A DNA stretch of 64,000 nucleotides from positions 16,260-80,259 of the IMG/VR virus record IMGVR_UViG_3300038760_000071; one strand, given 5' to 3'. Position 1 is the first letter of the stretch. Every line of letters starts with the position of its first letter. This DNA is from a virus. The position numbers and the translations under genes are program-made. Of this stretch, positions 5,575 through 56,669 are shown piece after piece. Under the pieces are notes generated by a model that was not told where the DNA came from, did not search any database, and saw only the letters and a list, made by a program, of their open reading frames with translations.

Positions 5575-6060
5575 CTAAACAACAACATACCCTTCTTTAT
5601 TTAGCGTGGCGTTGAACGATAAATTGTAAATATCTAGTGTTGGTATAGAATACTCTATTTCTATTATATACGTATTATCGTCAGGACTACCTTCAATTAA
5701 AACTGATTTTAGTGTTATTCTAGGCTCCTGCTTTCCTAAATTTTCATATATAGCAACAGCGATAAAATATGCCGTTGTTTGTGTTATCGACTCAAATAAA
5801 TAGCTTCGAAGATCTAGCCCAAATAGGGGATTTAATAGTTTTTGTCCGGGAGTGGTTGTTAAAATATTTTTAACAGAGTTAATTACCGCACGACCATCTT
5901 GTAACTCGTTTAAATCTCTAGGCTCTTGTGTTGAATATAGTTCAGGTCTATTAAATTTAGATAAGTTTAAATCAAATTTAATATCCTTATATAGATATCC
6001 CTGCTCTAGAGTTTTTTTCTCTAAAGTGTTTTGCTCGATATTGTCTAATCTTATTGCCAT
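5575..6060 (-). CDS. Baseplate wedge subunit, T4 gp25-like
   Basis: SVKNILTTTPGQKLLNPLFGLDLRSYLFE and QEPRI motifs. Confidence 0.9.
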   Translation of the reverse strand: MAIRLDNIEQNTLEKKTLEQGYLYKDIKFDLNLSKFNRPELYSTQEPRDLNELQDGRAVINSVKNILTTTPGQKLLNPLFGLDLRSYLFESITQTTAYFIAVAIYENLGKQEPRITLKSVLIEGSPDDNTYIIEIEYSIPTLDIYNLSFNATLNKEGYVVV

Positions 6061-6135
6061 TAACTTTGTACCCTTCCATAGTAGTTTTTATAACGTGTAT
6101 GTGGCATATGTATATTTAGTCTGTATACTATATGA

Positions 6136-6399
6136 ATGGAAATAAAAGCGCATAGAACGGAAGAGGTGATGGTCACAGTTAAGCCGACAAATGTAATTAA
6201 ATCCCTACAAATAGAATTCTTTAAAGCGATCAATATCTCATCAGATTCTACTATTGTGGATGGTAGTTGGGTTGTAGAAGAGAGTATCCACCCATCTGGA
6301 AATTGGACACGTGATGTTACAAGTCGTGATGCTACTTCAAATGAGCAGAATATATACAAAAGTTTAAAACAGTTAGAACAAAATTGGTTGAAGCTGTAA
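6136..6399 (+). CDS. Hypothetical protein
   Basis: 87-aa ORF filling the intergenic gap. Confidence 0.5.
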   Translation: MEIKAHRTEEVMVTVKPTNVIKSLQIEFFKAINISSDSTIVDGSWVVEESIHPSGNWTRDVTSRDATSNEQNIYKSLKQLEQNWLKL

Positions 6400-6448
6400 A
6401 ATATGTAATAAATGCTATATAATTTTTTATTATTGTATAAATAATTGT

Positions 6449-7027
6449 ATGGCTAAAAAGAAAAGATTTTTACCTCTACTCGAATCCTACATGCGTAGAT
6501 ACGAACGTGGAGGTTTTTTAGTAGGTGATATTTTTAAATTTAATGGAAACTTTAAATCGAGTGATGATTATAAGCAGTTAGGTCAAAATGTTAAGGATCT
6601 AATTGATCAAATAAATGACTCAGGATTACATATACATGTAGTTAATATTAGGGATGAGAATCCACAACGCTACCCAGCTGGTGATGACGGTGCGTTACTA
6701 CCGATATTAGATATTGCGTTAAGCACTAGTGGTGGGCGTACATCTCACCATGTATCAATCCCCTGTAGCTTAGGTACACCTATTAGCTATGCTCCTAACC
6801 TACCCCCTATCCCCGACTCTCTAAGACGTAAAGATAAAGTTAATATCAAGCCTGAGGAGTTAGAGCAGGATGAAGAGAATTTAGCAAATAAGACAGATAA
6901 GGGTGATGGTGTATTGTCTCAGTCGAGAATATCTTTACCTACTACAAACAGTAGTATACCGTCTGATCCAGCTACACCATCAGCTGATGTACATTCGTAC
7001 ACTAAGGACTATTTGACTGGTCTATAG
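6449..7027 (+). CDS. Hypothetical late protein
   Basis: 192-aa ORF directly after TATAAATA (6436-6443). Confidence 0.6.
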   Translation: MAKKKRFLPLLESYMRRYERGGFLVGDIFKFNGNFKSSDDYKQLGQNVKDLIDQINDSGLHIHVVNIRDENPQRYPAGDDGALLPILDIALSTSGGRTSHHVSIPCSLGTPISYAPNLPPIPDSLRRKDKVNIKPEELEQDEENLANKTDKGDGVLSQSRISLPTTNSSIPSDPATPSADVHSYTKDYLTGL

Positions 7028-7957
7028 AGCTTTCTCTAGATTAATCCAACAGGCAAAGGCGTTAATTTCTTTGTCTAAGACATGCGCAGACTTATATAAA
7101 TGGTCCGCGATGATCGCGATCATCTCCTTCTTCTTAAGATCAGCTATATCTTGTATATAAATGTGATTTAGGAAGTGAGTTAACAGCGTGTCGTAATCAC
7201 CTTGAAACCTACCTTCATTTTCAATTAAGTGTTTTCTAAGACTAAGTGTATCGGTTAACTTAGATAGAATTGTGTCAAGTAGTTCAGTATCTGCTGAACA
7301 GGTATCGATACATAACTCACCATCAATTACACTTTTCTGTAATTCGTTTATAGTTTTTCTAAGATCGGGGAAATATACCTTAACTAACTGAACAAATTTC
7401 TTCTTCTGCTCATCACTAATAATGACATTCTCTTGCTGAAGTATGTTATAGCATCGCTTAACAGCGTTTTCAATAGCCGGTTTAAGTTCTAGAGATTGAC
7501 ATCTAGATTGAAGAGCTGGAATTATTTTATGCTTGTAATTTGCGGTTAATATAAACCTACAATACTTAGCAAATGATTCCATAGTGTTCCGTAGCGCTTG
7601 CTGGGCTTGTGAGGTTAGACCATCTGCTTCATCTAAAATAATTACTTTAACCTTACCATCAAATGATTTGGTCTGCGCAAAATTTGTTATTTTATAACGA
7701 ATAGTATCGATACCAGATTCATCAGATGCATTAAGATACATGTAATTGCATTTGAGAATATCATTTACGATAACTCGAGCAGTAGTTGTCTTACCTGTAC
7801 CGGGCGCCCCGGTAAACAATAAGTTAGGAATCTCGCCTTTTATATTACGCAATACCCTAGACGACTGATCATCTAAAACTAATTCATCTAGATTTGTCGG
7901 GCGGTAAGCTTCACACCAAATCCCCTTAAAGTCTAATTTATTAATTTTATTATCCAT
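7022..7957 (-). CDS. Sliding-clamp loader ATPase subunit (gp44/RFC-like)
   Basis: YRP, GAPGTGKTT Walker A, NASD, DEAD Walker B and LQSRC motifs. Confidence 0.95.
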   Translation of the reverse strand: MDNKINKLDFKGIWCEAYRPTNLDELVLDDQSSRVLRNIKGEIPNLLFTGAPGTGKTTTARVIVNDILKCNYMYLNASDESGIDTIRYKITNFAQTKSFDGKVKVIILDEADGLTSQAQQALRNTMESFAKYCRFILTANYKHKIIPALQSRCQSLELKPAIENAVKRCYNILQQENVIISDEQKKKFVQLVKVYFPDLRKTINELQKSVIDGELCIDTCSADTELLDTILSKLTDTLSLRKHLIENEGRFQGDYDTLLTHFLNHIYIQDIADLKKKEMIAIIADHLYKSAHVLDKEINAFACWINLEKAL

Positions 7958-8001
7958 TGTATATTATATCGAAATTATCGTTTATGTTCCTTTAAATTTA
8001 A

Positions 8002-8424
8002 TTAGTTACCTGAAGAACCAAACCCCTTATCGCCCCTCTCACTATCGCTGATATCACCCTCAATGCAGATCACCGGGTGATTCTGATAAACCACGAACTG
8101 CGCAATTCGATCTCCAGCTGTTATTTGATAATCCGTGTCTGTTAAATTGTATAACTTTACACCTGCATCAGAACGATAACCTTCATCGATAATACCTGGG
8201 TGTGGTAAAATACCATGTTTAAAGCCAAGCCCCGAACGGCCTTCAATCTTAACCCAAAAGCCGGGTTCGATATATGCAAATTTTAGCCCAACATCAACTA
8301 CAGCTGATCCTCGAGCAGGAATTGTAATATCAACGACTGATGTTACATCCAACCCTGTATCATTACTATGGTTTTTTGTTGGAATTACAGCTTTATCGGT
8401 TGTCTTTTTAAATTTAATTACCAT
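8002..8424 (-). CDS. dut: dUTPase
   Basis: GLD, RSGLG, GIIDEGYR, GDRIAQ and RGDKGFGSSG motifs. Confidence 0.95.
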   Translation of the reverse strand: MVIKFKKTTDKAVIPTKNHSNDTGLDVTSVVDITIPARGSAVVDVGLKFAYIEPGFWVKIEGRSGLGFKHGILPHPGIIDEGYRSDAGVKLYNLTDTDYQITAGDRIAQFVVYQNHPVICIEGDISDSERGDKGFGSSGN

Positions 8425-21772: not shown

Positions 21773-23266
21773 TTATGCTAAAGGCTCATATCCAAACATT
21801 GATAGCTCATTCATATCATCTTGAGCTTGATCAGCACCCATACCGAAAACTATAGGCGGTAAGCAAGAATTATTATCACCCACTATTTCATTATCTAAAT
21901 ATAAAGATGTTGCATCTTCAAAATATTGAATACCGAAATCCATTTGTTCAATAGTAGCAGGTTTACCTCGCTCATCTAGTTCCACAATTTCAAAAAATCT
22001 TTCTGTTATTTCTTTCTCTAGAATGAACAGAGCGTATAGCAATGACATCACTCTATCATCATGATGACTTCTCCTAGCCTTCCATGTACCGTTTGGCCAT
22101 CGAACAAAATTCTTAAGCTCAGTTAAAGTTTCTATATCATTAATCTGAACTGCTCGTACATCATTAATAAAATATCGCATGTTTAATACACCCTGATATT
22201 TTGTATTAGTATGAGCAATCATACCTAGCATTATATTTTTCCTATGAGCCGCTTTATTACCATATGATACAATTTTCTCATATCCCATATCATTCGCTAA
22301 CCTATCTACAACTTGTGCACCACAATTATTACGCTCAATTAATGCCAACGGCATGCCGTAGTTACGGAGAACAGAATATACCTTAGTTGCAAATTCAAGA
22401 GGAGGTATTTTATTGCTAGTATAACAAGCAACCTGCCGTATATCTTTAATATCTGTTATATCTAATATTTGTATACATGATGAGTCGGCACCAACACCCT
22501 CCGCTGTATCAACACCAGCAACATAAACACGTGATGGGTCTGCCTCTTCCCATATCTTATAATGACCATCATCTAAAATAATTTTTGGATCTCGAGTCTT
22601 AGAAACCATCTCCTCAAATAAATCATCATCAATTGATGATTCACCTGTTGATAAAAATTCGCAATTAAATTCTTGTCTCCACGCATCATTTGATCCAATT
22701 GCCTGTCTAGTAGATTTAACCCAATCATCATCTCTATCCGGCACTTCATGCCACATAATTTTATCATGCGCCCAGCCATTTTCACCATCCACTGCACCCT
22801 TATATAATGTATGAAATAGATTATCATTACCATTTGCGGTACTACATACAAATACCTTGGATTTCTTCGACGATGTAATTACTGGAAAAACTGACTTCCA
22901 AAACTCCTCAATTAGGTGAGTGTTATGGGAGAGAATACCGTTAGTATAATACTTATGCGTCCTCTCAACCTCAACAAAATCATAAACCTTCTCTTCACGA
23001 CCAATATCAATAATATCAACAACCTCACATAGACCATCTACAGTTTTAATTCTATGACCTATTGAATCACATGCAAGAATAACATCCCCAGCTGCATCAA
23101 TAAACCCATGGTTTTTAGATACGTGTATATAATCACCGTTATCTAAAACAACTTGAAATAGCTTCTTCTTTGAATATTCAGCAATACCCTTAAAGTCTCT
23201 CCAACCCTCATCTGTTTCTATTTCCCATTCATCATTAGGAATGAATCTTTCTATATCTTCTCGCAT
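21773..23266 (-). CDS. terL: Terminase large subunit, C-terminal fragment, with an N-terminal split-intein C part (IntC2, aa 1-115)
   Basis: ...VYDFVEVERTHKYYTNGILSHN|THLIEEFWKSVFPVITS; then STANG, QEFNCEF, GVDTAEG, IERNN and HDDRVMS motifs of gp17. Confidence 0.92.
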   Translation of the reverse strand: MREDIERFIPNDEWEIETDEGWRDFKGIAEYSKKKLFQVVLDNGDYIHVSKNHGFIDAAGDVILACDSIGHRIKTVDGLCEVVDIIDIGREEKVYDFVEVERTHKYYTNGILSHNTHLIEEFWKSVFPVITSSKKSKVFVCSTANGNDNLFHTLYKGAVDGENGWAHDKIMWHEVPDRDDDWVKSTRQAIGSNDAWRQEFNCEFLSTGESSIDDDLFEEMVSKTRDPKIILDDGHYKIWEEADPSRVYVAGVDTAEGVGADSSCIQILDITDIKDIRQVACYTSNKIPPLEFATKVYSVLRNYGMPLALIERNNCGAQVVDRLANDMGYEKIVSYGNKAAHRKNIMLGMIAHTNTKYQGVLNMRYFINDVRAVQINDIETLTELKNFVRWPNGTWKARRSHHDDRVMSLLYALFILEKEITERFFEIVELDERGKPATIEQMDFGIQYFEDATSLYLDNEIVGDNNSCLPPIVFGMGADQAQDDMNELSMFGYEPLA

Positions 23267-24426
23267 AAGTCTTCTTTTGTTATTATCTTAAAAGCATAAT
23301 CATTCTCTCTACACCACAATCGAGCTGCTTCAAACTTCGACTGATTCAAAGGTTGATTTACAAACTCACGTGGCTTTACCTCGTATAATACTTTATTTAC
23401 CTGATCACAAAAATCGACAATGTAAACTCGTTCCTTATTATCATATGTGTAAGGAATTCGAATTAATTCATAATCTAAATGAGGATTATTTTCATGAAAC
23501 ATTACCTCCCAACTACTACGATAATTATTAAGTCCAGTTAACTCTGAATATAACTTTTTATTGGAATATCTGTTGTTTGTATTTGGTGTAAATTCTCCGG
23601 TTAAAATCTTATTCCTCATAACATCGCTCATCTTTTTATATATTCCCCTAGCTCTATTTTTTTTTGTGAGTTTATCTCTCTTATCTTTTGTCCACGTCTT
23701 CTTATTTGACGTAGATATCTTGCTTTTTGTTGTTTCGCTATGATGGTATCCCCTACGAGATTTCACTCTCCGCTCTTTAACATCACCAGATTGCAAATAA
23801 GACAAATCACGATCCTTCCCAATAGTACTCAAAACATCACTAATACATCGCTTCTTACTACACGTTTTATTCAAGAAGAATGTATTCCTATTTTTAAAGC
23901 TGCAATAATCACCACATATACAGTATATTGAATCATTACACATACTTGCAAATTTATATTTAATATCCTCAATACCTTCTGTATGTTTAGATATATTGTG
24001 AATTAAGTCCTTATCATTTAGCAATGATGTATAGGCTGCTCGTTGAACATAGTCAGATAATCGTAGCATCGTCTCATCCGGAGGCATTGATATACCATCT
24101 TCAAAGATACCATCTTTTAATCTATCAATAAAGGATGCAATTGACTTTCCACTAAACGACACACCACCTTTAACATAGCCACGTTTATAGCTAATAAACT
24201 TCAAGTCTGGTAGGTAGTCGACATCATTAACTATATGATATAACTTTTGACCGAGTGGTAGCTCATCTAACGTAGGTGTATCTCTATAATACTCATTTAT
24301 AAAATTATAAACCTTCTCACCATCTTCGTATTTATCATACCATGCTCTATAATATGAGTTTTTATTAAGCTTCTTATCCTCAAAGAAATCAACTATACAT
24401 GACTGCATATAACGTTTATCGATCAT
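23251..24426 (-). CDS. Free-standing homing endonuclease (NUMOD3-like DNA-binding + TnsA-like PD-(D/E)XK domain)
   Basis: HHSETTKSKISTSNK and YRSSWE...YELIRIPY...YIVDF...EVKP motifs; lies between the halves of split intein 2. Confidence 0.7.
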   Translation of the reverse strand: MIDKRYMQSCIVDFFEDKKLNKNSYYRAWYDKYEDGEKVYNFINEYYRDTPTLDELPLGQKLYHIVNDVDYLPDLKFISYKRGYVKGGVSFSGKSIASFIDRLKDGIFEDGISMPPDETMLRLSDYVQRAAYTSLLNDKDLIHNISKHTEGIEDIKYKFASMCNDSIYCICGDYCSFKNRNTFFLNKTCSKKRCISDVLSTIGKDRDLSYLQSGDVKERRVKSRRGYHHSETTKSKISTSNKKTWTKDKRDKLTKKNRARGIYKKMSDVMRNKILTGEFTPNTNNRYSNKKLYSELTGLNNYRSSWEVMFHENNPHLDYELIRIPYTYDNKERVYIVDFCDQVNKVLYEVKPREFVNQPLNQSKFEAARLWCRENDYAFKIITKEDLCEKI

Positions 24427-24434
24427 ATATTTAT

Positions 24435-24902
24435 TTATGTCTTTTGGATAATATTCTCAATACTTCTTGTGACTATCTCCCCTGTATTTTTATTACGTAG
24501 CCTTACTGTAGTATCTTTAGACACACACTCAATGAAAGCCATCTCATCAATCACTAAGCATTGATGACTTAATACACCGTTAGCGTAATATGTATGAGTT
24601 TTCTCAACTTCTAGCAGCTCGTATACTTTACTATCATCAGTGTAAGTGGCAATATCGGTAATTTCAATACCACCATATAATTTATTTTTAATTAAAAGAT
24701 CTTTTGCATAAACGATCTCCTCGTTTTCTGCTAACAGTTTATGTAGAGGTGTACATATTAACTCTTTATCACTAGAGAGTGTGAGTTTAATTTTTGAAGG
24801 GTTACTACCGATTATAAGCCCTTTAAAGTCTCTGAAACCGTCGTTTGTTAGTACTTGATATTTGCTATTTTTAAAGCATTTATATTTTGTTAAGTCTGCC
24901 AT
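24435..24902 (-). CDS. terL: Terminase large subunit middle fragment: IntC1 (114 aa) + 11-aa Walker B extein + IntN2 (30 aa)
   Basis: ...HTYYANGVLSHQ|CLVIDEMAFIE|CVSKDTTVRLRNKNTGEIVTRSIENIIQKT. Confidence 0.9.
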   Translation of the reverse strand: MADLTKYKCFKNSKYQVLTNDGFRDFKGLIIGSNPSKIKLTLSSDKELICTPLHKLLAENEEIVYAKDLLIKNKLYGGIEITDIATYTDDSKVYELLEVEKTHTYYANGVLSHQCLVIDEMAFIECVSKDTTVRLRNKNTGEIVTRSIENIIQKT

Positions 24903-24906
24903 CTTA

Positions 24907-25824
24907 CTATTTTATTTTTGTTTCGAGATTTGTACCTCTTTTTGGGAAGCATTTAGGACAAGCGGGTCTATGACCAATAGATAAATCATGATAAAATCTA
25001 GCGTCACACTCTTGACATACCCATTTATATTTTTTATACAGTGCAACTCCGTTATACGTCTCATCCAACTTAACGTTATAATCTGTCTCAATTTTAGAGA
25101 TTAATTTAACTTGCTTTGTAAAAATGGCGCGCTGCGTAATAGCCTCAGATTGCATTGGGTTATCTACACCATATTTTTCATTCAATGTCTTTCGAGCTTT
25201 ATTTTTATAATCTTCAGTCTGAAAAAAGTGATCAACACCGTATTTTAAGTTATTATGTTTAACTCGTGTTGTCTTAAGCTTAGATATATCGCTACACGTT
25301 TTATTACTCCATGTATTAATCACTTTACTTTTAAAATCCTCGCTCTGCTGGTATATCTCGCTCCCGTATTTCTCCTGGTTGGTTGCCTTACTATGTGATT
25401 GACCGGCTTTTGATTGCAACCAAGACGTTGCACCATATTTCTCTATATTAGTTAATTTAATCTCCTCAACATTATATTTATTACTACATTTACGACAACA
25501 AAACTTACCATACCCGGATTTAAAATCCCGGTATTTGAGAATACTATTACACTGCATGCATGTTGGTGTCTCTGATATATTATGACACACATTATACGCA
25601 TTACGAGCAAATGTTAACTCAGAGTCATATAGTTCATGTTGCTTTATAAATGTCACTTCATCACCGTGGAGATATTTCGGAAAAACCTTAGGTATATTTG
25701 TAAGCGTTAATAGTACACTATTCACATCCATAATAGTATTTATTACCCAATTGGGTAAAGCCACCGGTAAAGGTATTATATTTTTAATTGTCCAGGAATA
25801 TAGGAAGTAACTCCCCACCTTCAA
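24907..25824 (-). CDS. Homing-endonuclease-like protein with EKYG repeats and zinc ribbons, apparently lacking its nuclease domain
   Basis: Repeated EKYG/LKYGV units and CxxC pairs; ends just after CPKCFP; lies between the halves of split intein 1; true start may be downstream (MDVNSV). Confidence 0.55.
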   Translation of the reverse strand: MKVGSYFLYSWTIKNIIPLPVALPNWVINTIMDVNSVLLTLTNIPKVFPKYLHGDEVTFIKQHELYDSELTFARNAYNVCHNISETPTCMQCNSILKYRDFKSGYGKFCCRKCSNKYNVEEIKLTNIEKYGATSWLQSKAGQSHSKATNQEKYGSEIYQQSEDFKSKVINTWSNKTCSDISKLKTTRVKHNNLKYGVDHFFQTEDYKNKARKTLNEKYGVDNPMQSEAITQRAIFTKQVKLISKIETDYNVKLDETYNGVALYKKYKWVCQECDARFYHDLSIGHRPACPKCFPKRGTNLETKIK

Positions 25825-27478
25825 ATTCAGCTGCTAACTCCTCCATGGAGCAATCAAATGTTAACCCAGTTTCTTTATCTTTCAACGTTATTATTGTCTC
25901 CCCGTCGACACAGTTGACGGATTGGCCACGGGCTGCTGACCCGGTCGTAGTAGTAATACCTATACGAGAGCCATTCTCAAGGGTCATGGACGTTTTGGCA
26001 TATTCTTTAACAGGCGGCTTAAGCCAGTTAGGTAGTTCCTCATATGCCATCCGAACTCTTTGAAATATTTCAATCGCAGTAGCTTCTTTGTTAGCTACTA
26101 GCAATATTCGCTGATCTGCATTAAAGCATGCTTGCCAGAGGATATAAATTGTCATCATTGTCGAGTTGTGAGTAGGTATATACTGATTACCTGCGAGAAA
26201 TTGCGAATCTTCACTATCAACAGTTATACACCTAACAGGAACCGATTCAACAAGCTCTATATTCTTTATAAAGTGATACTGCCCCCTTATTTTAAAGTTA
26301 TGCTTCTTCTCTTGATGCTTTATTCTTTTCTGCTTAAACGATAATAGAGCTACATCTTCAATTGGTTTAAATGTTATAGATGAGCATGGCTTACATTCCA
26401 CACCATTAAGTGTCGGTATATAGTCTTTTAATGTAACCTTATACCCTAGACTTTCAGTTAACTGCTTTACCTGTCTAGTGAGATTCTTATTTGTGTTATA
26501 AAACTGACATGTACCTGCTTTATTTATATAGCCATCACTATCAACTAAACCTTGCAGTAACTGTAATCGTTGCTCTCTACTCGCTAACATATAATCAACG
26601 GGTATATGTTTATTATTGAGTAAGTTATTATGTCTTAATAACGAACTAAGACTCTTTGTTTGTATATCAGACTCAACAGTAGGGCGAATAAAATAATTTT
26701 TCGAATTGTAGTTTTTAATAATAAGCTTATCAAATTGCTCTATCTTATCAAATATTTTAATCTGTTCGTCTATATCTCTATGACCAACTGTTATTGTACC
26801 GGTAGCAGATGTACCATCACCTAACCACAAGCCTAGGACATAGGGATGTATAGGTAATTCTTTCTCTATACCCCCAACACCATTAATACATGTTGGTATT
26901 CTGTGATTAGGCTCAGGTCTCTTCTTACCACTATATAGTGTGTCTAAAATATCTCTTGTTGTCTTAACTGACCCACTACACTCCTTTCTACGATCACCCC
27001 TCGTCTGAGTAAACCATAAATGATCACCATCTGCAACTATCTCCTCCCCGTTATCAAATGTTACTTTATAACAGTCACGATCATATAATACATCATGCGC
27101 TTTTAAAACACTACACTGATCACCCTTATTATCGTATATAACATCACCAGATTTAATAGACCCCATATCCATCCACCCGGTTGGTGTTGGTATTGGTGTA
27201 TCTAATGCTAGTGCCTTACCTATCTGTCTACTTGCTAGCTGTATAAAGAATCGATTATCTCTCATCTTACGGATGGCTCGCTTTTGAGCAGGATATAGCT
27301 TAATAGTCTCACGCCCACGATCAAGATTAATAATATAGAAATAATTTTCAGCAAAATAGAGTATATTCTGACTCGCTTTCTTAAGCGCGTTCACTTGCGA
27401 TGTAGTATATTCACCTTTCCAGTTAACATTTGGTAGGTTTTTGTTACCCATGTAGAACATATTACTTTGCTGAGCCAT
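25784..27478 (-). CDS. terL: Terminase large subunit N-terminal fragment with a cis intein and a C-terminal split-intein N part (IntN1, last 42 aa)
   Basis: LYPAQ adenine-binding motif; Walker A SRQIGK|intein|ST; ends RGQSVN|CVDGETIITL... Confidence 0.92.
   Translation of the reverse strand: MAQQSNMFYMGNKNLPNVNWKGEYTTSQVNALKKASQNILYFAENYFYIINLDRGRETIKLYPAQKRAIRKMRDNRFFIQLASRQIGKALALDTPIPTPTGWMDMGSIKSGDVIYDNKGDQCSVLKAHDVLYDRDCYKVTFDNGEEIVADGDHLWFTQTRGDRRKECSGSVKTTRDILDTLYSGKKRPEPNHRIPTCINGVGGIEKELPIHPYVLGLWLGDGTSATGTITVGHRDIDEQIKIFDKIEQFDKLIIKNYNSKNYFIRPTVESDIQTKSLSSLLRHNNLLNNKHIPVDYMLASREQRLQLLQGLVDSDGYINKAGTCQFYNTNKNLTRQVKQLTESLGYKVTLKDYIPTLNGVECKPCSSITFKPIEDVALLSFKQKRIKHQEKKHNFKIRGQYHFIKNIELVESVPVRCITVDSEDSQFLAGNQYIPTHNSTMMTIYILWQACFNADQRILLVANKEATAIEIFQRVRMAYEELPNWLKPPVKEYAKTSMTLENGSRIGITTTTGSAARGQSVNCVDGETIITLKDKETGLTFDCSMEELAAEFEGGELLPIFLDN
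26165..27214 (-). mobile_element. 350-aa class-3 intein with LAGLIDADG endonuclease, inserted in the TerL Walker A motif
   Basis: Starts with Ala (ALALDTPIPTP); HLW in block B, VRCITV in block F, IPTHN|S end; LGLWLGDG and LQGLVDSDG LAGLIDADG motifs. Confidence 0.9.
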
Positions 27479-50066: not shown

Positions 50067-50255
50067 ATGCAAATCACAGGAGACCATAATATATCCACTA
50101 AACTTAGAAATAGTATCACCGATTTACATTTGCGTGTGGCTGATAAGGTATATGAACATGTTACAGAAGAGGTTTGGTACGATACCCGTTCTAATGTTTG
50201 GCACACTGTACTGGTTAGCGTTCGAGACAGCATACGTGATGTGTTAGACAGATGA
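50067..50255 (+). CDS. Trp/Val tetrad-repeat microprotein (diverged)
   Basis: EEVWYDTRSNVW...SVRDSIRDV. Confidence 0.55.
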   Translation: MQITGDHNISTKLRNSITDLHLRVADKVYEHVTEEVWYDTRSNVWHTVLVSVRDSIRDVLDR

Positions 50256-50494
50256 AAGTAGGGAACATATATAATACAGATATGAAAGTAGGTGATATAT
50301 CTTATGAGATACGTAATAAAATGCAGGGCGAAGTGGGGTTTGAGTTGTGGGATAAGGTATTGTGCGAGGTAGGAGATGATGTATGGGATGAGGTCTGGCA
50401 AGAGGTCTGGCATGAGGTGGGGCGATCGGTGAGGTTTGGGCTAAAGGATGTGATAGATTATAATGTAGGGAACTCTAGCATAATAAGGTTATGA
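50252..50494 (+). CDS. Trp/Val tetrad-repeat microprotein
   Basis: DDVWDEVWQEVWHEV. Confidence 0.65.
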   Translation: MKVGNIYNTDMKVGDISYEIRNKMQGEVGFELWDKVLCEVGDDVWDEVWQEVWHEVGRSVRFGLKDVIDYNVGNSSIIRL

Positions 50495-50679
50495 TTTTAA
50501 AGGAGGTAAGATATAAAGTATGGAACAAAATATGGCGTAAGGTAGAGAATGAGGCTCGGCAAACGATACAGGGTAAGGTAATACACGAGCTTTGGAATGA
50601 AGTAGAGGATGCGGTAGAGTATAGCCACTACATAGCAGATACGGTAGAAGATAAGATAAGAAACTCTACCATAACATAG
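50491..50679 (+). CDS. Trp/Val tetrad-repeat microprotein
   Basis: KVWNKIWRKV; ends in a junction-motif variant (RNSTIT). Confidence 0.65.
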   Translation: MILKEVRYKVWNKIWRKVENEARQTIQGKVIHELWNEVEDAVEYSHYIADTVEDKIRNSTIT

Positions 50680-50681
50680 AT

Positions 50682-50852
50682 ATGAATTTAACTAGTATAT
50701 GGTGTGAGGTAGAGGATGAGGTAGAGGATGGGGTAGAGGAAGAGGTATGGCGTGAGGCATGGCGCGCGGTGGAGCATAAGGTATGGTATGAGGCCACTCA
50801 TGAGATGAGAAGTACGGTAAGAGATAGGGTAAGGAACTCTGATATAATATAG
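50682..50852 (+). pseudogene. Disrupted tetrad-repeat microprotein copy
   Basis: ATGAATTTAACTAG start like its paralogs, but the frame stops early; repeat units continue to the next motif. Confidence 0.5.
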
Positions 50853-50884: not shown

Positions 50885-51073
50885 ATGAATTTAGAAGAGT
50901 TTAGGTATGAGATAGGGAACAAAATACGGCACAAGTTACAGCATGCGGCTTATTATAAGTTAGTGAGTAGTATAAGGGGTGAAGTAGGGCATGAGATATC
51001 AAGCAAGGTAAGGGTTGAGGTATGGGGCAAGGTATGTAATAAGGTAGAACATGCGGTATGTAATAAGGTATAG
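50885..51073 (+). CDS. Trp/Val tetrad-repeat microprotein
   Basis: MNL start; EVWGKVCNKV. Confidence 0.65.
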   Translation: MNLEEFRYEIGNKIRHKLQHAAYYKLVSSIRGEVGHEISSKVRVEVWGKVCNKVEHAVCNKV

Positions 51074-51332: not shown

Positions 51333-51527
51333 ATGAGAGTAGATCAGATATCGTATGAGCTGTGTAGTAAAATGCAGGTAGAGTTAGGGGCTAAGTTATG
51401 GGATAAAGTATTGAGTAGGGTAGAAGATGCTGTATGGAGTGAGGTATGGGTTAAGGTAGAAGATGCTGTATGGGGTGAGGTTTGGGATAAGGTAGAGCGT
51501 AAGGTAAGGAACTCTAATATAATATAG
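51333..51527 (+). CDS. Trp/Val tetrad-repeat microprotein
   Basis: N-terminus paralogous to the 50282 copy; ends RNSNII. Confidence 0.7.
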   Translation: MRVDQISYELCSKMQVELGAKLWDKVLSRVEDAVWSEVWVKVEDAVWGEVWDKVERKVRNSNII

Positions 51528-51529
51528 AT

Positions 51530-51880
51530 ATGAATTTGAATGAGATACAGTGTAAGGTGGAGGATAAGGTATGGGATGAGATCTGGGATAAGGTATGGGA
51601 TGAGATCTGGGATGAGGTAAGGGGTGAGGTAGGGGATAAGGTATGGGGTGAGATATGGGATGAAGTATGGGGTGAGGTAGAGGTTAAGGTAAGGGATGAA
51701 GTATGGGATGAAGTATGGGATGAAGTATGGGATGGGGTATATGATATCATCTGGGGTGAGGTATATGATAACATATTGAATGAGATATGGGATAAGGTAA
51801 GGTGGGGAGTAGAAGATAAGGTAAGGGGTGAGGTATTTGATAAGGTAGGGCGTAAGATAAGGAACTCTAATATAATATAG
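51530..51880 (+). CDS. Trp/Val tetrad-repeat microprotein (longest copy)
   Basis: (V/I)W(D/G)(E/K) units; ends RNSNII. Confidence 0.7.
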   Translation: MNLNEIQCKVEDKVWDEIWDKVWDEIWDEVRGEVGDKVWGEIWDEVWGEVEVKVRDEVWDEVWDEVWDGVYDIIWGEVYDNILNEIWDKVRWGVEDKVRGEVFDKVGRKIRNSNII

Positions 51881-51882
51881 AT

Positions 51883-52119
51883 ATGAATAAGGTATGGGAT
51901 AAGGTAGGGGATGAGATGGAGGATAAGATAAGGGATAAGGTAAGGGATGAGGTATGGGGTGAGGTAGAGCGTAAGGTATGGGGTGAGGTAAGGGATAAGG
52001 TAAGGTATAAAGTAAGGGATGAGGTATGGGGTGAGATAAAGTGTAAAGTATTTAATAAGGTAGAAGATGCTGTATGGGGTGAGATATGGGATGAGGTAAG
52101 GAACTCTGATATAATATAG
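51883..52119 (+). CDS. Trp/Val tetrad-repeat microprotein
   Basis: Ends RNSDII. Confidence 0.7.
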   Translation: MNKVWDKVGDEMEDKIRDKVRDEVWGEVERKVWGEVRDKVRYKVRDEVWGEIKCKVFNKVEDAVWGEIWDEVRNSDII

Positions 52120-52121
52120 AT

Positions 52122-52319
52122 ATGAATTTGAATACGAAGATAGGGTATAAGATATGGAATGAGGTAAGGCGTAATGTATGGAACAGGGCATGGAATGAGG
52201 TATGGTACGAGGTAAGGGATGAGGTAAGAGAAGAAGTATGGGGTAAGGTAAGGTATGAGGTAGGGGGTGAGGTAGGGGGTAAGGTAGAGCGTAAGATAAG
52301 GAACTCTGATATAATGTAG
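52122..52319 (+). CDS. Trp/Val tetrad-repeat microprotein
   Basis: Ends RNSDIM; shares a ~50-nt block with the 51106 copy. Confidence 0.7.
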   Translation: MNLNTKIGYKIWNEVRRNVWNRAWNEVWYEVRDEVREEVWGKVRYEVGGEVGGKVERKIRNSDIM

Positions 52320-52321
52320 AT

Positions 52322-52471
52322 ATGAATTTGAATGAGGTAGGGAGTGAGGTATGGGGTGAGGTAGAGCGTAAGGTAAGGGATAAGGTAGAAGATGCTGTAT
52401 GGGGTGAGATATGGGATAAGGTAAGGGATAAGGTAAGGTATAAGATAGGTAACACTGATATATCGATATAA
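52322..52471 (+). CDS. Trp/Val tetrad-repeat microprotein (49 aa)
   Basis: MNLNEVGSEVWGEVERKVRDKV...; below the ORF-track cutoff. Confidence 0.6.
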   Translation: MNLNEVGSEVWGEVERKVRDKVEDAVWGEIWDKVRDKVRYKIGNTDISI

Positions 52472-52673: not shown

Positions 52674-53354
52674 ATGAAAAAATATGTAAGAAGATACCCG
52701 ACAAAATACCGATATAATCAAATGGGATTATCGAAAGAGACAGGCTATTTTAAATACGTGGATGTTAATATATGTGCTGGATGCGCGGTAGCGAGCGCGT
52801 GTCAATCTCTATTAGATGTGCGTGGATACAATGCAATAGGTGACTATGCTCTAGGAATATATGAGCGCGCGAAGAAAGCGATCGGATCTCAGAGAACCGG
52901 TCTTCGAATATATCCCGCAGTGACTGAAGCAATATATACATTCAATGAAGAGAAGCGATATATAGATATTACAGCTACTAAGTTGGCGCCGCGAAGTAAG
53001 TCTCTGAGAGATCATCTACTCAATAATGGCACCGCGGTCGCTGGATTCCGATGGTATGAAGGTATGATGTATCCTACACCTATTATCCCACCAAATACTC
53101 CATGGTATCGTCGTATATGGTACCATCTCAGAGCCCCACGATATGCATCAGCCTCCGGAGACATTGCAGGTTATCATGCAGCAGCCGTGATGGGTGTAGA
53201 TGATCATAAGCAAGCATTTGTAATACAGAACTCATACGGGTTAGGCTACGGTAATAAAGGCAATGTCTATATGAAGTATGATGACTTCGACGCATCATGC
53301 GTCCAAGCTTATGGTTTTGACACTGTGGAGGAAAGAAAAGGAACTCTGATATAA
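52674..53354 (+). CDS. Papain-like (C1) cysteine peptidase
   Basis: CAGCAVA, YHAAAVMG and IQNSYG catalytic motifs; TATAAATA upstream; ends KGTLI within the motif. Confidence 0.8.
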   Translation: MKKYVRRYPTKYRYNQMGLSKETGYFKYVDVNICAGCAVASACQSLLDVRGYNAIGDYALGIYERAKKAIGSQRTGLRIYPAVTEAIYTFNEEKRYIDITATKLAPRSKSLRDHLLNNGTAVAGFRWYEGMMYPTPIIPPNTPWYRRIWYHLRAPRYASASGDIAGYHAAAVMGVDDHKQAFVIQNSYGLGYGNKGNVYMKYDDFDASCVQAYGFDTVEERKGTLI

Positions 53355-53361
53355 TATAGAT

Positions 53362-54039
53362 ATGATGAAACAGAAAGCTCCGATACTAAGCGCGGTTACC
53401 GCGCCGCGGCGATGGGTGACGAGGAATAATCTCAAACTAAATATGAATCGTCTAGCAGTGTTGTTGTTTTTTGCAACATTCGCTAACCAGTGGTCGATCG
53501 GTCAATCAGTTAAACTGGCTTGGGACGCTAGCGAAGATGAACGTGTAACAAGCTACCAAGTGAGGTATGGCACTTCAAGTAGCGTCCATCCATCGATGGT
53601 CGACGTGGGGAAAAACACCACAGCAACCATTACGGGCTTATCCTTCAGTGTTGATTACTACTTTGTGGTGTATGCTCTCACCGCTTCAGGCCTGATAAGC
53701 CTACCGTCTAACGAAGTCTATACCATCGTAGAGCCGCCGCCTTCATCGCGCGCCTATATAGGCTATCATATACGGATTCAGACGTCAGGGGAGTTTGAAC
53801 TCCAGCAGTCTGTAGACATGGTTAACTGGATTACGGTAAAGCAGGCAAGTGACTATTTGGATATAGTGATTCCAACCTCAGGTGTACACCGATCCTTTTA
53901 CCGAGTCACGCCATGGAACGGAGAAACTCTCTTCGAAGGTAGGTCATTTTACATTAACCAAACTAACTCGAGTGTAGACGATCATAAGCAAGCATTTGTA
54001 ATTCAGAACTCATACGGCTTCGACACAAAGGAACTCTGA
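53362..54039 (+). CDS. Secreted fibronectin type III domain protein
   Basis: VKLAWDAS...YQVRYGT...TITGL...YYFVVYA...SLPSNEV. Confidence 0.8.
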   Translation: MMKQKAPILSAVTAPRRWVTRNNLKLNMNRLAVLLFFATFANQWSIGQSVKLAWDASEDERVTSYQVRYGTSSSVHPSMVDVGKNTTATITGLSFSVDYYFVVYALTASGLISLPSNEVYTIVEPPPSSRAYIGYHIRIQTSGEFELQQSVDMVNWITVKQASDYLDIVIPTSGVHRSFYRVTPWNGETLFEGRSFYINQTNSSVDDHKQAFVIQNSYGFDTKEL

Positions 54040-54051
54040 TATAATATAGAT

Positions 54052-54384
54052 ATGAAAGCAACCGGTGCACGTTTTAAAGTACGGCATAAATTATGGAATA
54101 GGGTCAGGGGATCGATACAGAGTGGTGTGTGGGAAGAGGTAAAGAAGGCCGTCCAGGACCTGGTACATAATAGAATACCGAACAAGGTTCAGAACAAGGT
54201 ACAGAATAAAGGCCATAATGAGATATATCATGATGTAGAAGATGATGTATGGAATAAGGTATATAAGAGGGTAGAAGATAAGGTATGGAATAATGTATGG
54301 AATAAGCTACATAATACTGGAATAGCCTCAACGAAAAAGGCACTCAAAAGGAACTCTGATATAATAGATATACAGAAGAGATAA
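54052..54384 (+). CDS. Tetrad-repeat protein (outlying paralog)
   Basis: DDVWNKVYKRVEDKVWNNVWNKL. Confidence 0.6.
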   Translation: MKATGARFKVRHKLWNRVRGSIQSGVWEEVKKAVQDLVHNRIPNKVQNKVQNKGHNEIYHDVEDDVWNKVYKRVEDKVWNNVWNKLHNTGIASTKKALKRNSDIIDIQKR

Positions 54385-54422
54385 TTAGTTGAACAATAGC
54401 AAACTTAGACTATAATATATAT

Positions 54423-54773
54423 ATGAGCAACCAACCTAACAAAACACCTGGCGTTATTCTACACGGTGAAGCAATGATCTTCCAATCTCCCATTCCAGAA
54501 GGAGCTACAGAGATCAAATCATCCTCCACTAATATGCACATCATTGCAGATTCTGAGACTACCGGTAACCACCACGTTATCGATACTGTGCCAGGTACTA
54601 AGTACTTTAAACACGGTGATACAATGTACATGGAGAACACAAATGAGACCCGTGTGAGGTGCGTTCTAGCTGATCGTCACGATGCTATTACACTTGATCC
54701 TGGTACGTGGGAGTTTGGAATTCAAAAAGAATTTGATCATCTAACTCAACAGTTACATAATGTAGCTGACTGA
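54423..54773 (+). CDS. Small beta protein of the QGDV/HGE...TGHxH type
   Basis: LHGEAMI, ADSETTGNHHVI, HDAITLDPGTW..QKEFD and VAD C-terminus. Confidence 0.6.
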   Translation: MSNQPNKTPGVILHGEAMIFQSPIPEGATEIKSSSTNMHIIADSETTGNHHVIDTVPGTKYFKHGDTMYMENTNETRVRCVLADRHDAITLDPGTWEFGIQKEFDHLTQQLHNVAD

Positions 54774-54780
54774 ATTAACC

Positions 54781-54854
54781 GCGGGTATAGCTTAATGGTA
54801 AAGCTGCAGCCTTCCAAGCTGACTATGTGAGTTCGATCCTCTCTACCCGCTCCA
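54781..54854 (+). tRNA. tRNA-Gly(TCC)
   Basis: GCGGGTA acceptor stem, CTTCCAA anticodon loop, GTTCGAT T-loop, CCA. Confidence 0.9.
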
Positions 54855-54873
54855 TTTAAATATATAATACATT

Positions 54874-55254
54874 ATGAGATATATAACCCTCGCGTTCCTG
54901 TTAGCTGTTACATCTATGGTATTAGCTGCCTGGCTCCTCATTGGTGAAGTAGGCTACTACGTAGTTGACATGTCACAATCTAAGTGGCCTAGACTATCAG
55001 ATAAACCAATCACAACTAACGTATTAATACCACTATTTAAGATTCATGTTTTAGGTGATGAAAAGGAAAAGTCCCGGTTTGAGGCTGTACCTGAAAGTAA
55101 GTATGTTACGTTAGGGTTTAATATTAAACCTAATACCATGGCGAATGGTGAGCCGGAGCCGATGGACAATGTTCCGGAGGAGGTTAGCGATAAACTCTCC
55201 TGGAGATATCTCCGCGGAGTGCCCCTACAAACTGACATTTCCCTGTTAAAATAA
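54874..55254 (+). CDS. Membrane-anchored hypothetical protein
   Basis: N-terminal hydrophobic helix. Confidence 0.5.
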   Translation: MRYITLAFLLAVTSMVLAAWLLIGEVGYYVVDMSQSKWPRLSDKPITTNVLIPLFKIHVLGDEKEKSRFEAVPESKYVTLGFNIKPNTMANGEPEPMDNVPEEVSDKLSWRYLRGVPLQTDISLLK

Positions 55255-55352
55255 TTCCCCTTACATAATAATAAATTAACTATAGTAACTATACTCATTA
55301 TCGTGATACATGCGACCCGTTTAGATAATTATCTATTACAATAAATATTAAT

Positions 55353-55640
55353 ATGGATAGCGAACTCGAACTGTGCTACAAGTCAACAACATTCTGTGAT
55401 GGTAATGGAGGTAGGTGTCTAAAGTTTAAAACATGCCCGCTAGCGCTAACAGATGATGTGCGTCAGAAAGCTGACCGCTGGTGGGTGGCTAATGGTGATT
55501 CTATAGATGAAGATGTTCCTTTAGCAATTTTTAATGCTCCGCGGAAGTTGGATTGTTATGAGCCGCCTATTAAAGTGCCGGTGCCGGCACCATCCGATGA
55601 AGCTGATGACTCGAACACTGAGAAAGGAACTCTCATATAA
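55353..55640 (+). CDS. Cys-rich hypothetical protein
   Basis: TAAATA upstream; ends KGTLI within the motif. Confidence 0.55.
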   Translation: MDSELELCYKSTTFCDGNGGRCLKFKTCPLALTDDVRQKADRWWVANGDSIDEDVPLAIFNAPRKLDCYEPPIKVPVPAPSDEADDSNTEKGTLI

Positions 55641-55676
55641 TAAGAGAGTAGAAACAATACTAACCAGATACAAGAG

Positions 55677-56645
55677 ATGAAAAAGATTACTAAAATGACC
55701 GAGGAGGAGCATGCGAAAATGCCTGAGTATGTAGAGAAGTGGATCAAGATCGGGACTGATACTACCCGGCTGGATCCAGCTACCACGGAGAAGATTGTTA
55801 ATAACATTCGAAACCTGATTGATATGGAGCCGGGTGTACCGTGTTTGATTGTCGATAACCCTATTGAGGCTTGGGTAATGTCATACCTATCTCTTAAGCA
55901 AGGTGTGGCTATAGAGGATTTACATTCTGAGATGGTAAGTATCTTTAATGGTAACCCGAAGAAGTACGACGTCCCACGATGTGAACTTCCATGGATGACT
56001 GGATCGTTCTTTGCCTCTACGTTTGCCTTTTACGACTTTATGATTGAAGAGCTTGGTGTAGAGTTAGAGAAAGAGCTCTGGACAAAGTATAAGATATGGG
56101 AAGCTTCGTCCTGTCTTGGGTGTGTATATCCTCTAGATAGTTGTACGATCGTTAGTCAAAAGCCTAAGACCGTCTTCCTACAAGATGGCAAGCTTCATAA
56201 GGACGGTGAGCCAGCTCTAACATATGATGGTTTAGGTGAGTTAGTGATCTGGTCGTTAAATGGTGTTGAGGTACCGGAGTGGCTCGCTAAGACGTCCGCG
56301 CAGGATCTTACACTAGATGATTATAGCAAACTAGATAACGCGGACGTTAAAGCTGAGTTCGTACGTAAGGTTGGTATTGAGCGCTTTATTGATCAGGGTA
56401 AGATAGTCGATTCATTCAACGAGTATGATATTGCTACTCATGAGTGGTGGCACAAGTCTGAGTACGAGCTCGTAGATATGAACTCGTTGTTTAGTACATT
56501 AGACTACGCACCATATCTTAAGATGGTTAATCAGACAACTGGCATTTTCCATATGGAGGGTGTGTCGCCATCATGTCGAACAGTTGGTGAAGCTCTTAAA
56601 GAGCGCTTCGGTGGTAAGGATTTCGTTATCAACTCAATCGCCTAA
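55677..56645 (+). CDS. DUF6745-like protein
   Basis: W...G...AFYDF, CVYPLD...VSQKP...GKLHKDGEPAL.Y...WSLNGVEVP and NADVK..IGIERF motifs. Confidence 0.7.
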   Translation: MKKITKMTEEEHAKMPEYVEKWIKIGTDTTRLDPATTEKIVNNIRNLIDMEPGVPCLIVDNPIEAWVMSYLSLKQGVAIEDLHSEMVSIFNGNPKKYDVPRCELPWMTGSFFASTFAFYDFMIEELGVELEKELWTKYKIWEASSCLGCVYPLDSCTIVSQKPKTVFLQDGKLHKDGEPALTYDGLGELVIWSLNGVEVPEWLAKTSAQDLTLDDYSKLDNADVKAEFVRKVGIERFIDQGKIVDSFNEYDIATHEWWHKSEYELVDMNSLFSTLDYAPYLKMVNQTTGIFHMEGVSPSCRTVGEALKERFGGKDFVINSIA

Positions 56646-56669
56646 AAGGAACTCTGATATAATAATAGT

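Follow-up and report, generated by a model that had tools for sequence, protein, structure and literature searches.

A 64,000-nucleotide (nt) stretch of viral DNA (the window; bases 16260–80259 of the 80-kilobase (kb) IMG/VR record IMGVR_UViG_3300038760_000071, which has a CheckV completeness estimate of 38%) encodes a protein related to the DUF6745 family, a small partner protein and, upstream of both, twelve short open reading frames (ORFs) made of tetrapeptide repeats. On balance, we favour the view that these are the split form of a widespread phage module, in which a constant pair of proteins is kept and a repeat tract has been detached into separately expressed mini-proteins that act with the DUF6745-like protein (hereafter the core). 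The constant parts of such a module would be the core and its small partner, an all-beta protein in which certain His, Glu, Cys and Asp residues never vary. Relatives would carry a built-in tract of 7 to ~73 tetrads, of the form [polar]-[V/I/L]-[W/R/G/E...]-[D/N/S...], between the two parts of their core; in the window clade this tract would be missing from the core, with twelve free-standing proteins of 49–116 amino acids carrying the repeat. A sequence-only reading of this DNA had already proposed a split modular system. Our results agree with it in that the core lacks the tract, the same repeat lies free nearby and the trio of core, partner and array recurs, although the dependence of arrays on DUF6745 is at most suggested by them, and the interchangeable specificity or decoy subunits acting in trans that it proposed are hypothetical. 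A literature search found no publication on the split arrangement, and no relevant paper on DUF6745, PF20530 or phage proteins with tetrapeptide repeats turned up in the library searched, in which none mentions DUF6745 or PF20530.

A profile search of 1.84 billion representatives yielded 5,935 relatives of the core at E ≤ 0.001 (clusters at 50% identity), which makes DUF6745 and its partner one of the larger uncharacterised phage gene families. The statement that DUF6745 proteins often carry tetrad repeats at an internal site was borne out, because 51 of the 150 best representatives have an internal period-4 tract, of 7 to ~73 tetrads, and alignment of homologs places the insert. In all 51 the tract comes after the N-terminal part and ahead of the ‘GSF...FYDF’ motif; its tetrads take the forms S/D-Q-V-x, D-S-V-x and x-N-L/I-x, the third place often being W, R, G or E. 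Same-site tracts are found in the DUF6745 genes of phage loci L029 and L033–L038. Such repeat-bearing proteins (PF20530; phrog_31813), exemplified by L112 6305–7624 (−), L134 1949–3661, L035, L036 and P0226, share with the window homologous N- and C-terminal parts, the same partner gene, the same repeat type ([polar]-[V/I/L]-x-x) and the same insertion site, from ‘SPL/NPI..AW’ to ‘GSF...FYDF’. They differ in that the window core has no tract and twelve separate putative mini-genes carry the repeat. A search with the single window core found no longer homologs, and the repeat-bearing relatives surfaced only with a profile. In Pfam, one internal tract had a weak match to the beta-helix repeats at the C terminus of T4 gp5 (4.4e-6, below cut-off), which was set aside as low-complexity.

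The constant pair of the window comprises:

55677–56645 (+ strand), repeat-less DUF6745-like core protein, 322 amino acids (homology, alignment, model)
54423–54773 (+ strand), conserved all-beta partner protein, 116 amino acids (profile, alignment, model)

The core had been described as DUF6745-type with only a short non-repetitive segment where the tract would be, and this description was confirmed: the link from ‘DNPIEAW’ to ‘WMTGSF’ is ~40 residues long and non-repetitive, with homology to L112 on both sides of the L112 tract. A Pfam check of the family assignment gave a divided answer. The window sequence itself had no match by hmmscan even at E ≤ 10, below the 27-bit gathering cut-off of PF20530, but core homologs of 50–87% identity match PF20530 at 1e-6 to 2.5e-11 over residues ~143–242, some of them reaching the cut-off (28.5 bits for P0001, which is 87% identical to the window core, and 42–44 bits for P0018 and P0046). 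There are 309 core homologs of similar length, and most of those listed have a precomputed PF20530 match. L112 is a canonical member, matching the whole model (E 4.8e-66), and BLASTP aligns the window core with it over residues 109–238 (8e-7) and 2–42 (1e-4). A profile built from 34 core homologs matches L112 at 7.5e-17 in two pieces, one on either side of the L112 repeat tract, and the matches to L112, L134 and L071 (~1e-17 each) likewise consist of two pieces that bracket the repeat tracts. The window core also matches phrog_31813 (1.6e-12). On the basis of these homolog, BLASTP, profile and phrog matches, we call it DUF6745-like and a member of a divergent repeat-less subfamily.

Repeat-lessness is uniform in this subfamily. 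All 34 aligned core homologs are 308–356 amino acids long with the same ~40-residue non-repetitive link (‘DNPIEAW’ to ‘LPWxTGSF’), and no period-4 tract was found in the window core or in any of them. The AlphaFold model of the core is confident (predicted local distance difference test (pLDDT) score 92, predicted template modelling score 0.79); the protein is helical in its N-terminal part and has an alpha/beta domain at the C terminus. Foldseek found no match to this model in the PDB at E ≤ 0.001, the best wide VIA-align score (Z 4.3) was within noise and a sequence-profile search of the PDB with the core gave no match. Residues 79–90, the short link that stands in place of the tract, form one predicted helix with hydrophobic residues at i, i+4 and i+8 (L82, M86 and F90, of which F90 is invariant), and may be a three-tetrad vestige of the tract.

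The partner accompanies the core in most phages. A profile search found a partner homolog in 37 of the 40 phage loci fetched by way of the core protein, nearly always directly adjoining the core gene, and two of the three partner-less loci end just past that gene. Core and partner also diverge in step, with core/partner identities of 78.8/78.2% and 63.0/62.7% in two genome pairs. In the window the two genes are near each other on the same strand, with the partner upstream, but are not adjacent: 904 base pairs (bp) lie between them, containing a transfer RNA (tRNA) gene and two small ORFs (54874–55254 and 55353–55640).

54389–54416 (+ strand), sigma-70-like site (TTGAAC, 16 nt, TATAAT), ending 6 nt before the partner ATG
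54781–54854 (+ strand), tRNA-Gly (tcc), which with the two small ORFs separates partner from core

The motifs first ascribed to the partner were partly right. The HGE motif is there (as LHGE), but QGDV and TGHxH are not; the window protein has SETTGNHH instead, and QGDV and TGHKH are found in gp175 of the cultured Microcystis phage Ma-LMM01. Fifteen positions are invariant across partner sequences (H14, G15, E16, P25, S44, G48, N49, H51, C80, R85, H86, E103, D105, V114 and D116), and H14, E16, H51, C80, H86, E103, D105 and D116 look from their conservation like a metal-binding or active site. The partner model is all-beta, with 12 strands (pLDDT 89.5). Foldseek found no PDB match to it at E ≤ 0.001, and the best wide VIA-align score (Z 3.1) was within noise. 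The lack of a PDB match for the core and partner models is not proof of new folds. A PDB sequence-profile search with the partner gave one insignificant row (Rab-18, E 0.21), and Pfam assigned no family to the window partner or to 24 partner sequences, giving only scattered chance matches. Neither core nor partner matched the PADLOC or NCBIfam profiles, and across Pfam, PHROGs, NCBIfam, PADLOC and the PDB neither received a functional name. A few PADLOC and NCBIfam rows (best E 4.3e-06, no significant matched stretch) hit the repeat tracts of L134 and of the largest window mini-protein.

The free-standing tetrad ORFs at 50.07–52.47 kb and 54052–54384, which the sequence-only reading took for the displaced repeat module, are genuine open frames with a 12-bp period. 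There are twelve on the plus strand, between 50067 and 52471 and at 54052–54384, together holding ~176 tetrads:

50067–50255 (+ strand), mini-ORF 1, 62 amino acids, degenerate tetrad repeat, first of the array
50252–50494 (+ strand), mini-ORF 2, 80 amino acids, start overlapping the stop of mini-ORF 1
50491–50679 (+ strand), mini-ORF 3, 62 amino acids, start overlapping the stop of mini-ORF 2
50682–50852 (+ strand), mini-ORF 4, 56 amino acids, acidic
50885–51073 (+ strand), mini-ORF 5, 62 amino acids
51106–51330 (+ strand), mini-ORF 6, 74 amino acids
51333–51527 (+ strand), mini-ORF 7, 64 amino acids
51530–51880 (+ strand), mini-ORF 8, 116 amino acids, 27 tetrads, net charge −18, with a more regular E/K-V-W-D repeat than any other mini-ORF
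51883–52119 (+ strand), mini-ORF 9, 78 amino acids
52122–52319 (+ strand), mini-ORF 10, 65 amino acids
52322–52471 (+ strand), mini-ORF 11, 49 amino acids
52455–52560 (+ strand), decayed 13th unit, a copy of the start of mini-ORF 10 with ATA instead of ATG
54052–54384 (+ strand), outlying mini-ORF 12, 110 amino acids, net charge +12, with the partner gene directly downstream

Their consensus is [E/K]-[V/I/L]-[W/R/E/G]-[D/N/G], in which position 2 is constant and positions 3 and 4 are the most variable. We think that these frames are genes, a view drawn from three sequence comparisons: other phages encode the protein pattern through different codons (S-V-W-D, Q-V-W-N, Q-L-x-x); some of them have it in another layout, with the 4–11-nt overlaps typical of translational coupling (L020 and L026); and the same tract sits in real repeat-bearing proteins. 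The limits of the mini-ORFs are kept under both layouts, whether by the separate promoter-like elements of the window or by the 4–11-nt overlaps of L020 and L026. In the ESM Atlas, the largest mini-protein falls among viral hypothetical proteins and has one weak structural neighbour, a DUF6745 cluster, which we treat as a lead only.

The 16-nt sequence GGAACTCTGATATAAT occurs 32 times in the window (36402–62721), always on the plus strand, against 0.11 copies expected by chance. Copies relevant to the module are:

51508–51523 (+ strand), example of GGAACTCTGATATAAT (sequence pattern)
50833, 51311, 51508, 51861, 52100 and 52300 (+ strand), array copies, with further copies at 54030 and 54350
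55626–55641 (+ strand), copy with one mismatch, 35 nt upstream of the core ATG

In most copies an ATG follows 6–9 nt after TATAAT, the spacing being 6 nt in the array copies, and a copy precedes seven of the twelve mini-ORFs; towards the older 5′ end of the array, copies are degenerate or stop and start codons overlap. The element reads as an extended −10 (TGnTATAAT) without a −35, and looks like a −10-only promoter class that would give near-leaderless messages for most small genes of the 36402–62721 region. As it places the ATG of at least seven mini-ORFs at the expected transcription start, we infer that they are made as separate near-leaderless messages. This layout, 32 −10-only elements with a start codon at the expected start of transcription, is striking. 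The mini-ORFs also share ‘-RNSDII’ tails, which are encoded by GGAACTCTGATATAAT read in frame and are therefore a by-product of the signal rather than a peptide tag. Two genes between the array and the partner, a peptidase-like gene (52674–53354) and an fn3 gene (53362–54039), both contain ‘VDDHKQAFVIQNSYG’ near their ends, each time just before a copy of the −10-like element, which suggests duplication or recombination between element-bearing gene ends.

The array changes faster than the constant pair. In the genome pair with 79% identity of core and partner, no mini-ORF exceeds 60% identity to one in the other genome, and in the pair with 63% the ceiling is 39%; mini-ORF copies are closer to one another within a genome than to any copy in the other genome. 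One seawater sample has an in-frame 12-bp insertion behind 52507, and another contig has a back-joint inside the array, from 52273 to 51515. The 12-bp indel, the back-joint and the divergence fit slippage and recombination on the 12-bp unit. Metagenome contigs aligned to the window fragment in the array, and most of the array is without coverage in a more distant relative (X5). Joints from 53365 to 56646 were also seen, with sides shorter than 30 nt on the repeated −10-like element, and are not interpreted.

Comparison across phages suggests a link between free arrays and the state of the core. A split module can be defined as a repeat-less core and its partner with at least two free tetrad mini-ORFs on the same strand within 10 kb, as in the window, where the twelve mini-ORFs lie 1.3–5.6 kb upstream of the core. 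The expected co-occurrence of repeat-less DUF6745 genes with free arrays appeared in the counts: 21 of 38 distinct repeat-less cores have free same-strand arrays within 10 kb, against 0 of 7 repeat-bearing ones (Fisher p = 0.010). Arrays often abut core or partner, starting within tens of bases in L003, L012, L016, L021 and L024. All three parts, a repeat-less core, a partner and a free array, are found together again and again across many different phages, whose gene orders and repeat ‘dialects’ vary. Apparent free arrays in the repeat-bearing locus L038 were rejected as alternative frames of another repeat protein. Searching in reverse, from the repeat (pattern V-W-x-x-V-W-x-x-V-W in IMG/VR), placed true tetrads in four settings: inside DUF6745; free beside a repeat-less core (L101, where core and partner share the locus with the array); free in short loci; and inside a second protein family. 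Two of the three whole records searched for the short loci hold a DUF6745 homolog.

In a FastTree phylogeny of 179 rows with the tract masked, the window falls in a 24-row clade (support 99) with no repeat-bearing member. Elsewhere on the tree, split forms stand near repeat-bearing relatives (L028 and L032 beside L029, L179 beside P0249, L021 and L024 near P0128), and well-supported branches record at least 19 changes in the presence of the tract. The complementary distribution of arrays and built-in tracts is suggestive but not proven.

Several observations pull against a split module, and most of them favour instead mini-proteins that form a simple-repeat family of their own (self-associating helices, say, or anti-defence decoys), have only the repeat type in common with the DUF6745 tract and do not work with the core, being merely co-located with the pair in a plastic region of small accessory genes, an explanation that we judge unlikely, if the most credible of the three rivals. 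The complementary distribution amounts to only two or three phylogenetically independent contrasts, too few for a test, and for 17 of the 38 distinct repeat-less cores the fetched DNA shows no array. Four of five large ‘bare’ records have no V-type period-4 tract anywhere, in a search blind to I/L-type tracts, in which the many matches of one record proved to be a different, GT-rich hexanucleotide repeat, and the third of the short-locus array records, only 23% complete, showed no DUF6745. The same tetrad tract also lies inside the second family, which is unrelated, so the repeat is not exclusive to DUF6745. In the window itself the array is 3–5 kb from the core, with the peptidase-like gene, the fn3 gene, the tRNA and small ORFs intervening. 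Furthermore, a two-hexamer promoter scan misses GGAACTCTGATATAAT, which has no −35, and finds fewer sites than chance; its promoter role is one that we infer. Against mere co-location, arrays abut core or partner in many phages of otherwise different gene order, none was seen beside a repeat-bearing core, and the N-terminal lead-ins of free copies in some phages (‘MNIFKTIEKQ’ in L001, for one) resemble the lead-ins of internal tracts (‘SIFKNKK’, ‘NYFKTN’), a likeness seen by eye and unscored.

Two further explanations place the significance of the array in its DNA. It could be a store of cassettes that donates recombination material to a tract elsewhere, like silent pilin cassettes; the recombinogenic 12-bp repeats, the assemblies that break in the array, its back-joint and indel and the homogenisation of copies within a genome are all compatible with such a role. 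The window DUF6745 gene, however, lacks a tract into which cassettes could be copied, and the 80-kb record, itself 38% complete, yielded no further tetrad tract. Most units come with a start, a stop and either a −10-like element or a coupled overlap, and we judge a store improbable. More improbable still is that the region is a non-coding, G-rich and C-poor 12-bp satellite with promoter-like units, its frames being by-products of composition. Its GC skew reaches +0.64 and an opposite-strand frame of 313 amino acids stays open over 51514–52455, both of which we attribute to repeat composition; yet other phages, whose repeats differ at the nucleotide level and form no skewed satellite, show the same protein pattern and ORF architecture, fused relatives have the tract within bona fide proteins, and frame, starts and stops are regular. 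Each of these three rivals fits the evidence less well than does a split module.

If the module is indeed split, the mini-genes would be made as separate near-leaderless messages from −10-type elements. Recombination and slippage on the 12-bp repeat would let them multiply, shrink and become alike inside one genome, and they would diverge much faster than core and partner. Their products, presumed helical, would associate in trans with the core–partner complex at the place of the built-in tract, and one core could thereby present many alternative variable surfaces. Taken to its full extent, this would be a new phage system, in which a two-protein core accepts, one at a time, any fast-evolving helical mini-protein from a library that replaces the built-in tract, giving combinatorial surfaces, with lineages switching repeatedly between the two forms; we offer this only tentatively and regard it as rather doubtful. 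Were it true, the combinatorial surfaces might recognise or evade variable host factors in the replication phase. As a means of diversifying a protein complex, a repeated switch between a built-in hypervariable tract and a detached mini-gene library would be unusual, and the split form offers a testable way into what the family does: which of its surfaces varies, and what that surface binds.

A cultured relative gives a first indication of when the pair acts. The core profile matches gp174 of Ma-LMM01 (E 8.5e-21), and the product of the neighbouring gene, gp175, is the partner (E 6e-10). Compared with the window pair, gp174 has a non-tetrad insert at the tract site and the two genes are adjacent. 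In the infection transcriptome of Ma-LMM01, gp174 and gp175 rise together and are assigned to subclass B5 in the supplementary table (PMC5780444), as is DNA polymerase (gp178) (PMC5780444); uracil-DNA glycosylase (gp173), also in B5, is placed by the text among the middle, replication-phase genes (PMC5780444). Membership of the pair in B5 points to a role inside the infected cell and not in the virion, and the module probably acts inside the cell during the replication phase. As a cultured phage carries the constant pair and published data class it as middle genes, experiments are feasible.

Known systems offer partial parallels. At contingency loci, short in-frame DNA repeats change quickly in copy number and so alter a protein segment, and the tandem repeats of Borgs are reportedly rapidly evolving and in-frame too; the window differs from both in that its repeat is also split into many genes and linked to one conserved pair. 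Polymorphic-toxin orphan modules and pilS pair a constant gene with a collection, close by, of diversified versions of its variable segment. Such orphan or silent cassettes are mostly promoterless and are used by recombination, whereas most window units have a start, stop and −10-like element of their own and the core has no acceptor tract.

Tetrad tracts were also seen in other arrangements. The second phage family comprises proteins of ~240–290 amino acids with an S-V-W-D-type tract between two domains and no Pfam match (L061, L067, L073, L083, L091 (4318–5166, −), L126, L129, L130 and L138); its N-terminal domain starts ‘MCKFFSF...DSHTSIA’ and its C-terminal domain has ‘PFQ..LW..G.VPSFDGK.WRLH.G’. 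In L038, a plus-strand gene (6052–6756, 234 amino acids) with a period-4 alanine-rich tract (A-A-x-x) lies ~2.5 kb from the repeat-bearing DUF6745 gene. L148 has a 194-amino-acid ORF (6580–7164, +) made almost entirely of D/E-R-V-x tetrads, which ends 10 nt before a repeat-less DUF6745 gene (7174–8037, +); the two may be a gene split exactly at the junction, or a stop may have interrupted a fused gene. The 230-kb record G009 of L027 contains hundreds of GT-every-12 matches, which come from long GT-rich hexanucleotide repeats (GTAACT/GTTGGT type) scattered over several sites of that genome and are a different repeat system.

The window DNA is matched at 99% identity or more in seawater metagenomes, and none of the RNA runs checked for the window phage had a match. 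A TARA scaffold (L161) is syntenic with the window at 85–96% from 54347 onwards and ends at the array edge, so that arrays cannot be compared between these close relatives. The minus-strand half of the window encodes tail sheath, baseplate wedge and terminase, which identify the window phage as a myovirus, and the plus strand carries dense small ORFs and four tRNAs from ~36 kb onwards. By terminase profiles, the large terminase is seemingly split between 21773–23266 (−) and 25784–27478 (−), one piece being the N-terminal ATPase part and the other the C-terminal part, with three ORFs (23251–25824) between them.

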